DNA of 32,000 nucleotides from contig NZ_CP027570.1 of assembly GCF_003010495.1 (NCBI RefSeq), positions 390,001 to 422,000 of the forward strand. Direction: 5' to 3'. Positions 4,271 to 32,000 of the stretch are shown one piece after another. The DNA is from Megasphaera elsdenii DSM 20460. Lineage in GTDB: Bacteria > Bacillota > Negativicutes > Veillonellales > Megasphaeraceae. How positions within the stretch are numbered: position 1 is the stretch's first letter; each line of letters starts with the position of its first letter. The notes beneath the pieces were generated by a model. The model ran no database searches. It had not been told where the DNA came from and was given only the letters and a program-made list of their open reading frames with translations. Made by a program: the position numbers and the translations under genes.

Positions 4271-4306
4271 AAAAAAGGCGCTGTCCCATGAAGACAGCGC
4301 CTTTTT
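4271..4306. terminator. Bidirectional intrinsic terminator after phoR (A6-GGCGCTGTC-ccatgaa-GACAGCGCC-T5)
   Basis: Perfect 9-bp GC-rich stem at 4277-4285/4293-4301, flanked by an A-run and a T-run. It separates phoPR from the pstS promoter. Confidence 0.8.
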
Positions 4307-4341
4307 GAGTTTGAAGTTGAAAGTTTGATGTTTGATGTATC
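4307..4341 (+). repeat. Five tandem degenerate heptamers (GAGTTTG AAGTTGA AAGTTTG ATGTTTG ATGTATC) abutting the terminator
   Basis: Read directly from the sequence. The 26-nt string at 4300-4325 is identical to 23237-23262, and a reverse-complement copy lies at 14231-14265. Confidence 0.8.
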
Positions 4342-4396
4342 GGACGGGTATGGGGCCCCTGACCGGAAAATCATCCCTACGGATGGCCCCTCCTCC

Positions 4397-6824: not shown

Positions 6825-6869
6825 ATTATAGCGCAAAACCGGCTAAAAACAGTGTAAAAAGAGGGTAAA
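6825..6869 (-). promoter_or_regulatory. phoPR promoter region: -10 TATAAT plus three Pho-box-like direct repeats
   Basis: The minus strand reads TTTACC-ctctt-TTTACA-ctgtt-TTTAGC (6869-6842, 11-bp period), then 11 nt, then TATAAT (6830-6825). This suggests autoregulation. Confidence 0.55.
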
Positions 6870-6873
6870 AAAA

Positions 6874-7045
6874 GGGCTTGTCGCACGACGACAAGCCCTT
6901 TAAAGTTGTTAGTGGCTAGCAGTTAGTTGTTAGCGGATGGCTTTAAATTTGAAGGTTTTCTCTGCAAACTACAAACTCTGTGCTACAAACTATAAAGTAA
7001 ACGGGGCCTCTCATGATGGCAGAAACCTTCGTGCGGCAGTGCCCC
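6874..7045. repeat. Composite intergenic element, copy A (hairpin 1, heptad array, inverted heptad array, hairpin 2)
   Basis: Hairpin 1 is GGGCTTGTCG-cacga-CGACAAGCCC (6874-6898) and is preceded by A7, giving a minus-strand terminator. Heptads AAGTTGT TAGTGGC TAGCAGT TAGTTGT TAGCGGA occupy 6903-6937. Inverted heptads CTGCAAA CTACAAA CTCTGTG CTACAAA CTATAAA occupy 6962-6996. Hairpin 2 is GGGGC...GCCCC (7003-7045), containing CATGATGGCAGAAACCTTCGTG. The whole element aligns with 10608-10771. Confidence 0.8.
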
Positions 7046-7047
7046 TT

Positions 7048-8559
7048 TTAGAAATCGAAGTCCTTGGCCTTGATCTTGACCTGCCATTCTTTATCGACCT
7101 GTTTATAGGTAATGGTCGCAATGAAGGAGTGGAGGTCGCGGACCCAGGTGTAGTTGCGGTCGGAAATGTGATCATCGTCGAGGTCCTGGGCCCAGGAGAA
7201 GATGACCGTATCCCGCGGTGTCAGGACGTAGCCGATGGACAGGCCGTGCTGACGGGGGTCATCGAGGGTATCGAAGCGATACGGCGTGTAGCCGCTGACG
7301 TTGTGTTTCTTATACCAGAAGCTGGTCCACAAGCGATCGTTGATGCCCTGGTTGAGGATGACGCCGGAATAAGGATCGCGGCGCTGAGCATCATCGGTAG
7401 AATACCAATCCTTGCGGTAGCCGGCGAAGAAGCGCACATTGGCACGCTGCCATAAGGGGATAGGCGTATGAGTGATTTCCGTGCGGAAGCCTTTATGGGT
7501 CCCCGTCTTGACGCCATCTTCGGCCCAGCGGCCCCAGTTGGCACTGGAATCGATGTAAATGCCGGTGTCGCCGAGATGGAGGCGCGGTGCAAAGTATTCC
7601 AGTTCCGGCCACTTCGTAGCCCAGATGTTATCGTCGTTATCGGTACTTTCCTCCTTGCTGTAGCCAAAGCGGAAGGACCCGATTTTGGTATCCTTCTGTA
7701 TCTGTGCCGCCGGCTTGAGGCCATTCTTGGAGTTCAAGGCATAGCTGGCATGGAATTTCAAGTCACCTGACTGATTAAGCGGTACATCAGCATACCCCCG
7801 GACGCCGATGCCGTCATCGCTGTTATACGTCGGCCGCGGCAGCAACGTAAAGATGTAATGCTTGGTTTTATTCTTGTTATCCAACCGGCCCTCGTAATGG
7901 CCATAGGTGAACAGGCGGACGTGCTTGAACCAGAGGGCCGTATTTTCAGCCGTGAACTTTTCCCCCGGATAGATGCGGATATCGTCACCGGTAATATAAT
8001 AGTCCGGCGTCTTGGCAACGGCATGGGGCGTCGTAATCAGGCCGTGCTTGACGTAGCCGATATTGTCGTACATTTCGGCATCGGTCCCGCGGATATAGGT
8101 CGTAGGACCCATGAAGCCTTCGACCTTATCCATGCTCATGCTGCCGTTCTGGCTGTTATAGGTCACATCCTGCCCGGTCAGGGCATTGGTCTCATTGACA
8201 TAGACCACAGGCCCTTTCGTATGGTAGACGCCGCTTTTCATATTGCCTTCGACATAGTTGGCATGGACTTCATCCATGCCCTGCTTGATGTCGACATTAC
8301 CCCGGCTCTTGACATAGCCGTCGGCATTACGGGCGAAAAAGGTATCGGCCGTCATATGGACGGGCTGCTGCGGCAGGACGACGTCTTGCGAAGCGGCGGC
8401 CTGGTCCAAATCGACAGGCAGGATTTTCTTTTCTGTCACGGGAACGGCCATGACCTTATCCGTATGAAGTTTAGCTGTATCAGCGGCACTGGCCGAAAGA
8501 GTCAGCGGCAGCAGGGCTGCGATCATCGCCGCTGTCCACGTTTTATTCATTCGCGTCAC
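7048..8559 (-). CDS. Outer-membrane protein, OstA/LptD-like (short form)
   Basis: 503 aa. It has a signal peptide (LTLSASA-AD) and an N-terminal OstA/LptA-like beta-jellyroll segment (GNVDIKQGMDEVHANYVEGN...VVYVNETNALTGQDVTY). The C-terminal half is rich in aromatic and alternating residues and ends in a terminal Phe (DFDF), typical of beta-barrel OMPs. Confidence 0.6.
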   Translation of the reverse strand: MTRMNKTWTAAMIAALLPLTLSASAADTAKLHTDKVMAVPVTEKKILPVDLDQAAASQDVVLPQQPVHMTADTFFARNADGYVKSRGNVDIKQGMDEVHANYVEGNMKSGVYHTKGPVVYVNETNALTGQDVTYNSQNGSMSMDKVEGFMGPTTYIRGTDAEMYDNIGYVKHGLITTPHAVAKTPDYYITGDDIRIYPGEKFTAENTALWFKHVRLFTYGHYEGRLDNKNKTKHYIFTLLPRPTYNSDDGIGVRGYADVPLNQSGDLKFHASYALNSKNGLKPAAQIQKDTKIGSFRFGYSKEESTDNDDNIWATKWPELEYFAPRLHLGDTGIYIDSSANWGRWAEDGVKTGTHKGFRTEITHTPIPLWQRANVRFFAGYRKDWYSTDDAQRRDPYSGVILNQGINDRLWTSFWYKKHNVSGYTPYRFDTLDDPRQHGLSIGYVLTPRDTVIFSWAQDLDDDHISDRNYTWVRDLHSFIATITYKQVDKEWQVKIKAKDFDF

Positions 8560-10586: not shown

Positions 10587-10607
10587 TCCGTTTAGGAATG
10601 CAAAAAA

Positions 10608-10771
10608 GGGGCTTGTCGCATGACGACAAGTCCCTTTTTGAGTATTAAGTTTTCAGTTTATAGTTTTTAGTGAAGGTTTTTAAATTTAAAGCTATCTTCT
10701 ACAAACGCCGTACTACAAACTATGAAGCAAAAGGGCCCTGCATGATGGCAAAAACCTTCGTGCGACAGCCC
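10608..10771. repeat. Composite intergenic element, copy B (between convergent rbr and the LysR gene)
   Basis: Hairpin 1 is GGGGCTTGTCG-catga-CGACAAGTCCC (10608-10634), flanked by A6 and T5, giving a bidirectional terminator. Heptads GAGTATT AAGTTTT CAGTTTA TAGTTTT TAGTGAA occupy 10640-10674. CTACAAA units occur at 10699 and 10713. Hairpin 2 is 10733-10771 and contains CATGATGGCAAAAACCTTCGTG. The element is collinear with 6874-7045. Confidence 0.8.
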
Positions 10772-10782
10772 TTTTTTTACAC

Positions 10783-14177: not shown

Positions 14178-14230
14178 GCCCTTCATGGATATCCAAAAGG
14201 GTGAGGCAATAACTTTTAAATTTTGTCCCA

Positions 14231-14265
14231 TCCACATCAAACTTTCAACTTCAAACTTCAAACTC
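14231..14265 (-). repeat. Heptad array, reverse-complement copy of the GAGTTTG/AAGTTGA module
   Basis: The minus strand reads GAGTTTG AAGTTTG AAGTTGA AAGTTTG ATGTGGA immediately after the terminator T-run. The order matches 4302-4341 and 23239-23264. Confidence 0.8.
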
Positions 14266-14322
14266 AAAAAAGAGGCTGTCGCATTATGCATTTTTTTGCT
14301 TAATGCGATAGCCTCTTTTTTA
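14266..14322. terminator. Bidirectional terminator between the convergent radical-SAM and TVP38 genes
   Basis: The 16-bp stem is AGAGGCTGTCGCATTA (14271-14286) paired with TAATGCGATAGCCTCT (14301-14316), with one G-T pair. It is flanked by an A-run and a T-run. The TVP38 stop codon sits in the T-run. Confidence 0.8.
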
Positions 14323-22977: not shown

Positions 22978-22984
22978 TGGCGCC

Positions 22985-23083
22985 CTGCGGCCTAGTGGCT
23001 CGTGGCTTCGGACTGCGGCCTAGTGGCTCGTGGCTTCGGACTGCGGCCTGGTGGCTCGTGGTTTCGGCCTGCGGCCTAGTGGC
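22985..23083 (+). repeat. Tandem 28-bp repeat, 3.5 copies (CTGCGGCCTAGTGGCTCGTGGCTTCGGA), equal to four CTnnGGn heptads per unit
   Basis: Copies at 22985-23012 and 23013-23040 are identical. Copy 23041-23068 has three substitutions. A partial copy lies at 23069-23083. The array starts 8 nt after the stop of the 153-aa gene. It shares the 15-mer TAGTGGCTCGTGGCT with 31420-31434. Confidence 0.9.
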
Positions 23084-23100
23084 CGCATCGTAAGGACCGT

Positions 23101-23198
23101 CCGTAGGGGCCGTCCCAAAGGGCGGCCCGTTGTGGGAATCCCACCATCGGCAATCCGTAGGGGCGACCACGTGGGCGCCCGTTGCGGGAATCCCGCAT
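23101..23198 (+). repeat. Two tandem ~54-bp GC-rich modules (CCGTAGGGG + hairpin + CCCGTTG + hairpin)
   Basis: Module 1 hairpins are 23107-23128 (GGGCCGTCC-caaa-GGGCGGCCC) and 23132-23144 (GTGGG-aat-CCCAC). Module 2 hairpins are 23161-23180 (GGGCG...CGCCC) and 23184-23196 (GCGGG-aat-CCCGC). The second stem differs by a compensatory T:A to C:G change. Confidence 0.7.
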
Positions 23199-23208
23199 CT
23201 CGTTCCAT

Positions 23209-23243
23209 AAAAAGGGCTTGTCGCACGACGACAAGCCCTTTTT
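23209..23243. terminator. Bidirectional terminator (A5-GGGCTTGTCG-cacga-CGACAAGCCC-T5) shared by the 153-aa gene and uppP
   Basis: Perfect 10-bp stem at 23214-23223/23229-23238. The sequence is identical to the hairpin at 6874-6898. Confidence 0.8.
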
Positions 23244-23264
23244 GAGTTTGAAGTTGAAAGTTCA
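23244..23264 (+). repeat. Heptads GAGTTTG AAGTTGA AAGTTCA following the terminator
   Basis: Together with the T-run, this forms a 26-nt exact match to 4300-4325. Confidence 0.8.
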
Positions 23265-23278
23265 GCCCCTTATTTCGA

Positions 23279-23312
23279 CCTGCGGGACGCCCTCTGGGCG
23301 TCCCCTACGAAT
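23279..23312 (-). repeat. Inverted third copy of the CCGTAGGGG-hairpin module
   Basis: The minus strand reads TTCGTAGGGGACGCCC-aga-GGGCGTCCCGCAGG, with a perfect 9-bp stem at 23284-23292/23296-23304. It is in inverted orientation relative to the modules at 23101-23198, so the two bracket the terminator. Confidence 0.65.
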
Positions 23313-26158: not shown

Positions 26159-26187
26159 GGCGTCCCTCCTTCGTAGGATTGAGAAAA

Positions 26188-26360
26188 CGGAGCTGTCCTA
26201 GGAAGACAGCTCCGTTTTACGTTGGTCGCAAGCCGTTCATCGTTTGTCGCAAGGGATCCAACAATATCAAGCCATCGCGATGAACGACGAACGACGAACG
26301 AAAAACTGTTAAGTCAAAGGAATCGTGCATGATGGCAGAAACCTTCATGGAACCGTCCTT
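26188..26360. repeat. Composite intergenic element, copy C (variant heptads)
   Basis: Hairpin 1 is CGGAGCTGTC-ctaggaa-GACAGCTCCG (26188-26214), flanked by A4 and T4. Heptads CGTTGGT CGCAAGC CGTTCAT CGTTTGT CGCAAGG occupy 26220-26254. Inverted heptads GAACGAC GAACGAC GAACGAA occupy 26282-26302. A 9-bp inverted repeat CGTTCATCG/CGATGAACG is present. Hairpin 2 (26317-26360) contains CATGATGGCAGAAACCTTCATG. Confidence 0.75.
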
Positions 26361-26363
26361 ATC

Positions 26364-27875
26364 TTATTTATGCTGTTCCGGACGGCTCAACGGGAAGAGA
26401 AGGACGTCGCGGATGGACGGGCTGTTGGTCAGGAACATGACCAGGCGGTCAATGCCAATGCCCAAGCCGCCTGTCGGAGGCAGGCCGTATTCCAGAGCGC
26501 GGCAGTAGTCTTCATCCATCTGATGCGCTTCGTCATCGCCGCGTTCCCGTTCTTTCATCTGTTCGATGAAGCGGTTACGCTGGTCGATGGGGTCATTCAA
26601 TTCCGAGAAACCGTTTGCCAGTTCACGGCCGTAGATAAAGGCTTCGAAACGATAAGTCAGGAGCGGATTATCGCGGTCCTGTTTGGTGAGCGGCGAAATT
26701 TCCAGGGGATGACCGGTGATGATGGTCGGCTGGATGAGGTTTTCTTCGACGAATTTTTCAAAGAAAGCGTTGATAATCTTGCCGACGCCATCGAACTGGC
26801 CGTATTCGACGTCATGTTCGTCAGCCATCTTGCGGGCTGTTTCGACGTCTGTAATGCCTTCGAAGTCAGCACCGCTGAATTTCTTGACCGCTTCGATCAT
26901 GGTCATGCGGTCCCAAGGCGGCGTGAGGTCGATTTCTTTGTCGATATAGGTCAATTTCATCGTGCCATAGAGCATTTCAGCCAGTTTGGAAACCATGTCT
27001 TCAGTGATGTTGATGACATCTTCCAAGTCGCCGTAAGCCTGGTACAATTCAACCGTCGTAAATTCCGGATTGTGCCGCGTGTCGATGCCTTCGTTGCGGA
27101 AGCAGCGGTTCATTTCATAGACTCGTTCCAAGCCGCCGACGAGGAGGCGTTTGAGGTGGAGTTCCGGAGCGATGCGCAGATAAATGTCCATATCGAGGGC
27201 GTTGTGATGCGTCTTGAACGGACGGGCAGCCGCGCCGCCGGCAATGGTATGGAGCATCGGCGTTTCAACTTCCAGGAAATGACGGTCGTCGAGGTATTTG
27301 CGGATGCCTTTGATGATCTTCGACCGTTTGATGAAGGTATCTTTGACTTCCGGGTTGACGATGAGGTCGAGGTAACGCTGACGATAACGCGTTTCCTTGT
27401 CCGTCAGGCCATGGAATTTTTCCGGCAGCGGGCGGAGGGATTTGGACAAGAGGGTCCATTTTTCGACGCGGATCGTCGTTTCACCGGTATGAGTAACGAA
27501 GACCGTCCCTTCGATGCCGACGATATCACCGATATCGAGGAGTTTGAATAAGGTATATGATTCTTCACCGAGAACATCTTTACGGAAATAGAGCTGGATT
27601 TCACCACTCAAATCGCGAAGGACGCAGAAAGCCGTCTTGCCGTGGCGGCGGATAGCCATGAGGCGGCCGGCGACACTGACGACGGTTTCATTCTTTTCCA
27701 GTTCTGCAGCGTCATCCTTGACTTCCTGTGCATGATGATCCCAGTTGTATTTCTGACCGAAGGGATAGACGCCGGCGTCGATAAATTCCTGCATCTTTTC
27801 GCGGCGGACCTTCATTTGGTCATTCAATTTTTCTTCTTCAATAATAGGCGTTTCTTTTTCTTTCGTATCCGACAT
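26364..27875 (-). CDS. lysS: Lysine--tRNA ligase (class II) LysS
   Basis: It has an N-terminal OB-fold region and class II motifs (FRNEGID..HNPEFT, GGLGIGIDRL). I placed the start at the ATG at 27875 (MSDTKEKE), which has an AGGAGG RBS 6 nt upstream. The track ORF is 19 codons longer. Confidence 0.95.
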   Translation of the reverse strand: MSDTKEKETPIIEEEKLNDQMKVRREKMQEFIDAGVYPFGQKYNWDHHAQEVKDDAAELEKNETVVSVAGRLMAIRRHGKTAFCVLRDLSGEIQLYFRKDVLGEESYTLFKLLDIGDIVGIEGTVFVTHTGETTIRVEKWTLLSKSLRPLPEKFHGLTDKETRYRQRYLDLIVNPEVKDTFIKRSKIIKGIRKYLDDRHFLEVETPMLHTIAGGAAARPFKTHHNALDMDIYLRIAPELHLKRLLVGGLERVYEMNRCFRNEGIDTRHNPEFTTVELYQAYGDLEDVINITEDMVSKLAEMLYGTMKLTYIDKEIDLTPPWDRMTMIEAVKKFSGADFEGITDVETARKMADEHDVEYGQFDGVGKIINAFFEKFVEENLIQPTIITGHPLEISPLTKQDRDNPLLTYRFEAFIYGRELANGFSELNDPIDQRNRFIEQMKERERGDDEAHQMDEDYCRALEYGLPPTGGLGIGIDRLVMFLTNSPSIRDVLLFPLSRPEQHK

Positions 27876-31328: not shown

Positions 31329-31352
31329 AAAAAAAAGCGCCACCAACGGCGC
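31329..31352 (-). terminator. Short intrinsic terminator-like hairpin about 40 nt upstream of birA
   Basis: The minus strand reads GCGCC-gttggt-GGCGC followed by T8. It is a second terminator, about 250 nt downstream of the ftsH stop. Confidence 0.5.
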
Positions 31353-31419
31353 ACAATATGCCTATTCTATGTAAAAATTTTAACATAAACCATCCCCCTG
31401 TCAAGGGGAGGCTGGGAGG

Positions 31420-31482
31420 TAGTGGCTCGTGGCTAGCAGTTAGTAGTCAGCAGTCAGTGGCCTGCCAGCTAGTGGCCCGTAG
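31420..31482 (+). repeat. Nine consecutive degenerate heptads (TAGTGGC TCGTGGC TAGCAGT TAGTAGT CAGCAGT CAGTGGC CTGCCAG CTAGTGG CCCGTAG)
   Basis: Read directly. The first two units match the 28-bp tandem repeat at 22993-23007, and the TAGTGGC-TAGCAGT-TAG pattern matches 6910-6926. Confidence 0.8.
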
Positions 31483-31542
31483 AAAGAATCTCCAAATATC
31501 CAGCGGATCGCCCACGTAGTGTTCTTTTTCAATTCAAAACCA

Positions 31543-31591
31543 TCCACTAACAACTTAAAAGGGTTTGTCGTCATGCGACAAACCCTTTTTT
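31543..31591 (-). terminator. ftsH terminator: conserved-family hairpin followed by AAGTTGT TAGTGGA heptads
   Basis: The minus strand reads A6-GGGTTTGTCG-catga-CGACAAACCC-TTTT-AAGTTGTTAGTGGATGG. It is the same hairpin as at 6874 and 23214, but with a compensatory C:G to T:A pair. The trailing AAGTTGTTAGTGG also matches 6903-6915. Confidence 0.8.
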
Positions 31592-31601
31592 CACTTGTTT
31601 C

Positions 31602-32000
31602 CTATTTTTCTTCGTCAGCCTTTTTCTCTTCGTCGTCTTTATCGGTCAGGCCTGTAGTCAGGCCGCCTTTGGGGACGGGGTTGCCCCAGGGGCTGATCTG
31701 TATTTCTGTCTGTTCTGCCTTGGGAGCAGCCGGTTCGGCTTTTTCTTCCTTGGCTTCAGGAGCGGCTGTGGTGTCCGGTGTTCCGGCTTCCGTCGTTTCC
31801 GCCGGGACAGCCGGTGCAGCTTCCGTTTCCTTTTTCTGGTCTTCCGGCCCTTCCAGGGTACCGTACTTGACCAGGTTGTCGACTTGCTGATGGTTGATCG
31901 TTTCGACTTCCATCAGGGCGTCGGCCATATGCTTCAGCGTATCCAGGTGTTCGCGCAGCATGTGGAGTACGTCGGCATAGGCTTCGGATACGGTATCGTG
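31602..32000 (-). CDS. ftsH: ATP-dependent zinc metalloprotease FtsH, C-terminal end (partial; the gene continues beyond the window)
   Basis: The frame is open to the window edge. It translates as ...HDTVSEAYADVLHMLREHLDTLKHMADALMEVETI..., which is FtsH C-terminal helical-domain-like, followed by a Pro/Ala/Glu-rich tail. The position upstream of birA-coaX-dus-lysS fits Firmicutes synteny. Confidence 0.8.
   Translation of the reverse strand, partial: HDTVSEAYADVLHMLREHLDTLKHMADALMEVETINHQQVDNLVKYGTLEGPEDQKKETEAAPAVPAETTEAGTPDTTAAPEAKEEKAEPAAPKAEQTEIQISPWGNPVPKGGLTTGLTDKDDEEKKADEEK

Follow-up and report, generated by a model that had tools for sequence, protein, structure and literature searches.

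The DNA considered here is a stretch of 32,000 nt from Megasphaera elsdenii DSM 20460 (contig NZ_CP027570.1, positions 390,001 to 422,000 of the forward strand), referred to below as the window. It carries the pst operon, phoPR, an ECF transporter, feoAB, uppP and the genes lysS-greA-dus-coaX-birA-ftsH, and most of its larger gaps are filled by whole copies or fragments of one repeated intergenic element. This element is ~183 nt long, specific to Megasphaera, and built in part from tandem 7-nt units (heptads). The 63-bp focal stretch at 31420-31482 is one heptad-built arm of a degenerate copy.

The element is composed, in order, of an A-run, a hairpin (hairpin A), about five G/T-rich heptads of the form KKKN-T-[A/C]-G (array 1), an AT-rich core, a shorter run of complementary-type heptads such as CTACAAA (array 2), a second hairpin (hairpin B) and a T-run. 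On the minus strand, the focal gap contains hairpin A, a shortened array 1, a degenerate core, half of a GTAG-headed palindrome, and the focal array as the inverted arm. The parts of the spacer were read by comparison with three other loci (L034, L047 and L012) and with the element core.

31420-31482, plus strand: focal heptad array, inverted arm of a degenerate element copy (weak match to array 1 of the element profile, E = 0.003); units TAGTGGC TCGTGGC TAGCAGT TAGTAGT CAGCAGT CAGTGGC, one 8-nt unit, TAGTGGC
31483-31539, no strand assigned: spacer, with a half-remnant GTAG-headed palindrome (minus strand CTACGTGGGCGATCCGCTGGATATTTGG) and a degenerate core (minus strand GGATGGTTTTGAATTGAAA)
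31540-31591, minus strand: partial element copy (nhmmer E = 8.7e-13, model positions 4-55), with a hairpin A variant at 31561-31585 (GGGTTTGTCG-TCATG-CGACAAACCC), a T-run and the start of array 1

Of array 1, the partial copy at 31540-31591 has 2 heptads in the window, compared with 4 or 5 in most strains. The hairpin at 31561-31585 is not listed by the terminator scan, probably because the A and T runs on either side of it pair with each other, leaving no free tail.

Seven-base periodicity of the intergenic DNA

The initial annotation had described a 7-bp rhythm in the intergenic DNA of the window, and this is borne out at all nine intervals that it listed. Identity at a lag of 7 nt is 0.46-0.93 in these intervals, compared with 0.24-0.34 after shuffling (5000 mononucleotide shuffles; p <= 0.009 each). 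The focal array (63 nt) scores 0.59 versus 0.25 for its shuffles, and the weakest array is 26220-26254, at 0.46. Autocorrelation gave period-7 peaks both in the intergenic DNA of the window and in the DNA outside open reading frames (ORFs) of a Megasphaera sample described below. In the window, the pooled intergenic DNA (3.0 kb) has identity peaks at lags 7, 14, 21 and 28 (0.306-0.318 versus ~0.26), and the coding DNA has a period-3 signal only. Sliding 42-nt segments with at least 62% lag-7 identity mark six regions (4297-4345, 10629-10679, 14227-14276, 22979-23078, 26273-26321 and 31411-31466), every one of them intergenic. The 29 kb of coding DNA contains no such segment. The same pipeline found no period-7 array in 50 kb of E. 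coli K-12, where lag-7 identity is 0.249.

Several finer points of the initial annotation also hold. The shared word TAGTGGCTCGTGGCT occurs at 22993, 23021 and 31420, the word TAGTGGCTAGCAGTTAG occurs at 6910 and, with one unit more, at 31420-31443, and TAG recurs in heptad register at 6910, 6917, 6924 and 6931. Two points require revision. The focal stretch was described as nine back-to-back heptads; the array stands, but the last three units are displaced from the register by one base because one unit is 8 nt long (CTGCCAGC). The 7-nt period was also said not to match helical phasing, but three units make 21 bp, or two helical turns, so the two are not wholly unrelated.

The element and its copies

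An alignment of element copies (A1) was converted into an nhmmer profile of ~185 model positions. In a search with this profile, every locus listed in the initial annotation proved to be a full or partial copy of one element family, except a 28-bp repeat that shares its gap with a partial copy. The heptad-bearing features of the window are as follows.

6867-7049, plus strand: full element copy with sharp ends (nhmmer E = 1.5e-65); hairpin A 6874-6898; array 1 6899-6940 (TTTAAAG TTGTTAG TGGCTAG CAGTTAG TTGTTAG CGGATGG); core 6941-6961 (CTTTAAATTTGAAGG...); array 2 6962-6996 (CTGCAAA CTACAAA CTCTGTG CTACAAA CTATAAA); hairpin B ~7003-7045; T-run
10602-10777, plus strand: full but diverged copy, 74% identical (nhmmer E = 5.5e-43); array 1 TATTAAG TTTTCAG TTTATAG TTTTTAG; array 2 of CTACAAA type
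26183-26364, plus strand: strongly diverged full copy (nhmmer E = 3e-15, model positions 4-184); hairpin 26188-26214; array 1 26215-26254 (TTTTACG TTGGTCG CAAGCCG TTCATCG TTTGTCG); array 2 26273-26302 (CGAACGA units, the complement type of array 1); hairpin B-like segment with ATGATGGCAGAAACCTTC
4271-4345, plus strand: partial copy in the phoR 3' region (nhmmer E = 1.6e-4 for 4271-4323; lag-7 identity 0.71); hairpin GGCGCTGTC-CCATGAA-GACAGCGCC (4277-4301), T-run, TTTGAAG TTGAAAG TTTGATG TTTGATG
14227-14321, plus strand: heptad array and terminator between convergent genes (lag-7 identity 0.68; weak profile matches, 14204-14320); array 14231-14268 (CATCAAA CTTTCAA CTTCAAA CTTCAAA CTCAAAAAA), then a long terminator hairpin 14272-14315 and T-run
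23208-23260, plus strand: partial copy (nhmmer E = 6.3e-11); exact hairpin A 23214-23238, then TTTTTGAG TTTGAAG TTGAAAG
22985-23083, plus strand: 28-bp higher-order repeat, 3.5 copies (TRF score 177), of four heptads CTGCGGC CTAGTGG CTCGTGG CTTCGGA, directly after the stop codon of a 153-aa ORF

The copy at 6867-7049 has 40 long BLAST matches in other loci, with 70-100% identity and most at 89-97%. Hairpin A has the form GGGCTTGTCG-loop-CGACAAGCCC, and the arrays of the window abut hairpins of this type. The conserved core, which is AT-rich, is marked by TTTAAATTT and GATGGCTTTAAATTT; in the copy at 6867-7049 it reads CGGATGGCTTTAAATTTGAAGG. Hairpin B carries the conserved CATGATGGCAGAAACCTTCGTGCG. 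Its loop region, ATGATGGCAGAAACCTTC (7014-7031, 10744-10761 and 26331-26348), ranks among the best-conserved segments of the element and holds even where a copy has diverged strongly; together with TTTAAATTT it is a candidate recognition site.

Copies with this shared architecture fall into subfamilies that differ in their units: TNGYTAG (6867), TTTNNAG (10602), TTTGAAG/TTTGATG (4304, 14231 and 23244; also loci L059 and L079) and xxxxTCG (26215; also loci L054 and L062). Within a copy, array 2 is usually of the complement type of array 1, a rule broken by three mosaic copies. Indels in the arrays of the aligned copies are 7 nt long, and the distances from hairpin to core (22, 36/37 and 43-45 nt, zero distances set aside) are steps of 7. 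At a common phase, picked after seeing the data, the unit consensus is approximately T-K-G-N-T-[A/C]-G.

The element is found at gene ends. At least one ORF ends at the element in 28 of 32 scorable copies, and the stop codon often abuts the A-run. Of 180 cases read in the G-rich orientation, 81 have a hairpin with T-run 5' of the array and 27 have one 3' of it. The homopolymer run on the array side of hairpin A is short (mean 3.7) and that on its far side is long (mean 5.1), suggesting that a transcript entering from either side probably runs to the far end of the element before it terminates. RNA of the G/U-rich strand is predicted to fold into three stem-loops (z = -5.2, versus -2.9 for the complement), with compensatory changes in hairpin A and at the base of hairpin B. 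The element thus has the GC-rich hairpin, T-run and position at a gene 3' end that define an intrinsic terminator in sequence, and through its two hairpins it most likely acts as a bidirectional terminator or 3'-end module.

Other structures were considered and set aside. A conserved central stem between array 1 and array 2 pairs in 91.6% of cells, but its covariation is 0.069 versus 0.067 after shuffling and RNAalifold drops the stem. A sigma-54 promoter, a Chi site, a G-quadruplex and a small ORF were dropped by eye as readings of the arrays or hairpin B, on misfits of spacing or composition and on the hairpin B loop variants, which are non-synonymous when read as peptide. The window has no Rfam family at gathering score, and the matches on the element itself are at chance level (E = 0.18 and 0.4); there is no tRNA or tmRNA in the window.

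Period-7 arrays outside the element adjoin other terminator hairpins and palindromes with a GTAG head, which are recurring neighbours of the arrays in the window and at other loci (L012, L034, L047 and L057 among them). Three of those in the window are as follows.

23103-23128 and 23157-23180, plus strand: GTAG-headed GC-rich palindromes, REP (repetitive extragenic palindromic)-like, GTAGGGGCCGTCCCAAAGGGCGGCCC and GTAGGGGCGACCACGTGGGCGCCC, -12.7 to -20 kcal/mol
23283-23308, minus strand: third GTAG-headed palindrome

Stem variants of these palindromes are compensatory (GTAGGGGCCGTCCC-AAA-GGGCGGCCC and GTAGGGGCGACC-ACGT-GGGCGCCC). There are 175 GTAGGGG sites in 830 kb, 137 of them with stable hairpins, and the GTAGGGG head lies 3' of a G-rich array in 17 cases versus 2 with the order reversed. 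In sequence, these palindromes, but not the heptads themselves, fit the definition of GTAG REPs. At 23089-23165 the 5' half of a palindrome is tandemly duplicated with a 13-nt period (CGTAAGGACCGTC CGTAGGGGCCGTC), and a palindrome-containing unit of ~53 nt in the same segment is present or absent by strain.

Further features lie next to two copies. The focal array is 15 nt upstream of the -35 box of a predicted minus-strand birA promoter (TTGACA-16-TAAAAT, 31404-31377). A near-palindrome, TATGTAAAAATTTTAACATA (31368-31387), overlaps the -10 box of this promoter and is, by inference only, a candidate BirA operator. Between the promoter and the birA start codon (31326), a terminator-like hairpin, GCGCCGTTGGTGGCGC, is followed by T8 (31337-31352, minus strand) and may be a leader attenuator. 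Beside the element copy at 6867-7049, immediately upstream of the phoP promoter region, A-tracts recur with an 11-bp phase (6827-6882; AAAACAGGGTA x 3.8, lag-11 identity 0.81) and may form curved DNA.

Strain variation and distribution in Megasphaera

The window was compared with 20 strain loci. One, L134 (GCA_000283495.2, HE576794.1, a 2.47-Mb chromosome), is 100% identical over 16,777 nt, and the other 19, from isolates and gut metagenomes, are 98.3-99.6% identical. Within the gaps, variation is concentrated in the arrays, which have indels of 7, 7, 14, 21, 28, 56 and 56 nt and thus change by whole units; the rest of the gaps is nearly invariant. A single 50-nt deletion removes six heptads plus the 8-mer. 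Relative to the window, strains differ by +7 nt and -50 nt in the focal array, by insertions of 21 nt and 14 nt at 31540-31591, and, in two strains, by a 7-nt deletion at 14247. The 28-mer at 22985-23083 is present in 1.5, 2.5 or 3.5 copies by strain, giving indels of 28 and 56 nt. Where units have been added, they are duplicates of a neighbour (e.g. TCGTGGC TCGTGGC).

Whole elements also vary. The copy at 10602-10777, in the gap between the LysR and rubrerythrin genes, is missing from about half of the strains. The empty allele (five or six strains) has a single hairpin, GGGCTTGTCGCATGACGACAAGCCC, with T7 and is 137-138 nt shorter; the ends of the filled allele repeat CGACA(A)G-CCC-TTTTT. The sequence CCCTTTTT occurs on both sides of the extra 137-138 nt. 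It is part of the hairpin arm and T-run, so a deletion between direct repeats explains the flanks as well as a target-site duplication does. The phoP gap has two very different element alleles, of the TAGTGGC type and the TTTGAAG type, between identical flanks. At the pstS-upstream site of another species (locus L115), orthologous to window 4271-4345, hairpin A is accompanied by a TAGTGGC-type element instead. These patterns fit insertion, deletion or conversion via short hairpin homology, without telling which.

Some further differences were observed in these comparisons. 'Deletions' of 1140 nt and 54 nt near 14222-14284, in one strain each, may be assembly or alignment artefacts. Two metagenome scaffolds have N-runs exactly at the element in the LysR/rubrerythrin gap (loci L131 and L138), indicating that the repeat breaks short-read assemblies. 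The called FtsH product (31602-32000; around 9700 in loci L001-L010) is 641, 674, 677 or 681 aa long by strain, and in one strain there is a 9-nt deletion at 31801, in the Glu/Ala/Pro-rich tail of FtsH.

When one genome per species was searched, the hairpin A pattern occurred in at least 120 stretches, and among the matches listed almost all lie in five Megasphaera species. In 711 kb from these five species, the element profile has 334 matches, 63 of which span at least 150 of the ~185 model positions. Exact copies of hairpin A have a period-7 flank in 66 of 97 cases, compared with 1.1% of random 42-nt segments, and the heptads follow the hairpin on one side. DNA outside ORFs of at least 100 aa amounts to ~75 kb of this sample (72.9 kb for the autocorrelation). 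TRF finds 178 arrays there, of which 148 have a period of 7, 14, 21 or 28 (118, 21, 8 and 1, respectively). Heptad-period arrays are not confined to the element: 75 fall outside element matches and have no exact hairpin A within 300 nt, often lying after other terminator hairpins and before GTAGGGG palindromes, and the longest consists of 131 nt of CGCAGGT units. Identity at lags 7, 14 and 21 is 0.312, 0.303 and 0.304 versus ~0.26, and the peaks persist when all element matches are masked (0.283, 0.280 and 0.283 versus ~0.268). Unit families in the Megasphaera arrays include TAGTGGC, TTTGTAG, TTTGAAG, CATCGTT, CGCAGGT and GGGGTTA. The initial annotation had reasoned that its proposal would fail if the arrays were decayed fragments of a single known element with no conserved register. 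They do belong to a single family of elements, but we found no published description of it, their register is conserved, and the enrichment of period 7 extends past the listed loci.

Two apparent occurrences fall outside the genus. A contig labelled as a Peptococcaceae metagenome-assembled genome (MAG; locus L094, JAXJBF010000108.1) has a typical Megasphaera element arm with hairpin A and is probably mis-binned. In the Phycisphaerae MAG K_Offshore_80m_m2_006 (loci L030, L035, L066, L113 and L114), the 25-nt hairpin pattern belongs to a different, GC-rich multi-copy repeat that has no heptads, indicating that heptads are not a consequence of the hairpin sequence itself. A search of plasmid and phage collections found no sequence related to the element, and we found no published description of the ~183-nt family in the literature.

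Origin and role of the heptad arrays

Heptanucleotides are reported to be the commonest class of long simple-sequence repeat (LSSR) in most of the prokaryotic genomes surveyed, and polymerase slippage has been proposed as their cause (Mrazek 2007, as reported in PMC4679880 and PMC4692102). Known heptamers include the cyanobacterial short tandemly repeated repetitive (STRR) sequences, GGGAATC of Xanthomonas, GGGGAYT of Nostoc and TAACTGA of Beggiatoaceae (PMC4679880, PMC4692102). The Megasphaera arrays resemble these LSSR and STRR sequences in their tandem 7-nt units, which are above chance at many intergenic loci, in a length and sequence that vary between close relatives, with whole-unit variation between isolates, and in the presence of some inverted pairs and several unit families per genome; the proposed cause, slippage, is also the same. 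They differ in their host, a diderm Firmicute (Negativicutes), in their units, in being mostly short and degenerate (4-9 units, up to ~18), and in being tied to intrinsic terminator hairpins and packaged in a ~183-nt multi-copy element. The Beggiatoaceae heptamer lies just upstream of start codons, whereas the Megasphaera arrays lie at gene 3' ends. STRR sequences proper are cyanobacterial and have the units CCCCAGT, TTGGTCA and CAACAGT, so that the arrays of M. elsdenii, with other units, are not members of that class. We found no report of heptanucleotide repeats for Megasphaera in the literature.

As a whole, the element resembles the BIME/REP, ERIC, Correia, BOX and RUP repeats in being modular, multi-copy, non-coding and intergenic, mostly downstream of coding regions. 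It shares with them richness in hairpins, presence or absence by strain, an AT-rich centre, likely transcription into 3' untranslated regions (UTRs) and GTAG palindromes alongside. It is unlike them in that its arms are heptad tandem repeats, it is bounded not by terminal inverted repeats but by terminator-like hairpins with runs of A and T, and it has no known transposase partner or clear target duplication. Hairpins A and B have 3' arms that repeat each other in direct orientation, unlike the terminal inverted repeats of miniature inverted-repeat transposable elements. Contingency loci share the polymorphism of unit number between strains, probably by slippage, but have units of 1-5 nt; the Megasphaera unit is 7 nt, the arrays lie outside ORFs, mostly at 3' ends and not between -35 and -10 boxes, and the genes beside them are housekeeping genes (birA, ftsH, pst, uppP).

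The explanation that we favour, and hold to be probable without regarding it as settled, is that the heptads are STRR/LSSR-like heptanucleotide tandem repeats whose length changes by slippage and which either travel with repeated terminator hairpins or are seeded there. Arrays would gain and lose whole units through replication slippage or recombination between in-register units. Such changes would keep the 7-nt register while the unit sequences drift and are homogenized within each array. The period may recur in so many gaps because the arrays travel with the repeated terminator module or are seeded beside it. The module itself probably spreads, or is exchanged, by short-homology recombination between near-identical hairpins, which would explain the empty and filled alleles as well as the exchange of alleles within identical flanks. 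The two hairpins are most likely the functional parts, and the heptads most likely serve as expandable spacer DNA. The initial annotation had suggested slipped-strand expansion of a seed heptamer inside a mobile element. Unit-wise expansion within a repeated element agrees with the multi-copy element and the indels in multiples of 7 nt; strict transposition does not fare as well, as no terminal inverted repeats, clear target duplication or parent transposase were found for the element.

Several observations weigh against this explanation. In most element copies the number of heptads is exactly five and their degenerate sequence is the same from species to species, so slippage must be slow in such copies and the array could be conserved for a reason. 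Otherwise different families share a unit pattern (T at 5, A/C at 6, G at 7), which may point to constraint or merely to shared ancestry. In four subfamilies the unit type of array 2 tracks that of array 1, which is unexpected for neutral spacers. The genus-wide counts come from loci that were picked for having hairpin A, and the terminator role is read from anatomy and position. Slippage also does not account for the unit size of 7 nt.

The initial annotation also suggested sites for a heptad-reading nucleic-acid-binding protein. The arrays would then be multivalent binding platforms, on which a protein that covers ~7 nt per monomer lines up along the G/T-rich strand or along the C/A-rich complement, in DNA or in 3'-UTR RNA. 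A protein of this kind might be a cold-shock-domain protein, S1 or another single-strand binder, and its binding would modulate termination, RNA stability or a neighbouring promoter; the footprint of a cold-shock domain is 6-7 nt. The T-K-G-N-T-[A/C]-G consensus of families rotated to a common phase is consistent with this idea, as are the five units kept in element copies, the polar order of hairpin, T-run, G-rich array and GTAG palindrome (81 versus 27 and 17 versus 2 above), and the much better folding of the G/U-rich strand. Csp, S1 and CsrA have been proposed to bind the TAACTGA heptamers of Beggiatoaceae (PMC4679880). We nevertheless consider a binding platform unlikely. The units differ widely (TAGTGGC, TTTGAAG, CGCAGGT, CATCGTT, GGGGTTA), arrays lie on either side of transcripts, unit number varies freely by strain with no sign of compensation, the common phase was picked post hoc, and no candidate protein was identified.

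The GTAG-headed palindromes suggest a different origin, in which a REP-associated Y1 transposase (RAYT) or a related nuclease-ligase cuts and rejoins at (G/C)TAG beside them. The heptads would be a by-product, duplicated or deleted in 7-nt steps that resemble the palindrome head (TAGGGGC compared with TAGTGGC). The abundance of GTAGGGG palindromes with stable hairpins and their placement 3' of G-rich arrays speak for such an enzyme, together with TAGGGGC and TAGGGGT units within arrays (loci L045 and L121) and the presence of GTAG REPs in other heptamer-rich genomes (Xanthomonas, Nostoc/Anabaena). This origin is nonetheless improbable in our judgement, since many arrays are without TAG (CGCAGGT, TCGTGGC, CATCGTT, TTTGAAG). 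A tblastn search with E. coli RayT found no match in ~1.1 Mb of partial Megasphaera genomes, in which a single-copy gene is easily missed, and no palindrome-flanked ORF in these genomes resembles a transposase, itself a weak test. We know of no 7-nt stepping activity of RAYTs.

Both ideas bear on a bolder proposal, that period 7 is set not by generic slippage but by a dedicated molecular ruler, either a Y1/RAYT-type enzyme at (G/C)TAG or a 7-nt single-strand binder selecting K4-T-[A/C]-G. We give this proposal little credence. If true, it would explain both the co-occurrence of heptamer repeats and GTAG palindromes in Xanthomonas, Nostoc/Anabaena and a Firmicute, and the joint change of unit type in the two arms of the element.

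Stop codons offered another reading in the initial annotation, which regarded the arrays as frame-independent stop cassettes. TAG, TAA or TGA in heptad register would stop ribosomes entering the terminator region in all six frames. Eighty of 198 arrays close the three frames of the G-rich strand and 63 close all six, compared with 4.9% (G-rich strand) and 1.4% (C-rich strand) in composition-matched shuffles, and YTAG units put stops on both strands. However, closure of all frames is automatic once a unit holds one stop triplet such as TAG or TGA, because 7 mod 3 = 1; an estimated ~28% of random units per strand would close frames. Many of the counted arrays are copies of one element and not independent, and arrays are often found past the terminator of the gene ending at that site. 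With 36 of the 198 arrays free of stops in every frame, and several major unit families stop-free, the cassette idea is not general. It explains the YTAG and TGA units only, and is very unlikely as an account of the arrays.

That the periodicity is a chance or compositional artefact can be dismissed as refuted, even though individual arrays are short (median 30 nt) and degenerate, given that all listed intervals exceed their shuffles, coding DNA and the E. coli control are without signal, and strain indels are quantized in 7-nt steps.

The favoured reading, heptanucleotide repeats that change by slippage at terminator hairpins, bears on several questions. The element could serve as a strain-typing marker for M. 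elsdenii, a species used as a ruminant probiotic, and it is a site at which metagenome scaffolds break. A 2013 survey lists GTAG REPs for Proteobacteria, Cyanobacteria, Chloroflexi and PVC only, and the neighbouring palindromes would extend REP-like repeats to a phylum, Firmicutes, not reported there. With short arrays at a fixed phase to terminator hairpins and several unit families, Megasphaera provides a tractable case for asking why bacterial tandem repeats favour 7 nt. Whole-unit variation among hundreds of public gut-strain assemblies makes the slippage rate, the effect of unit number on termination, and a binding protein testable.

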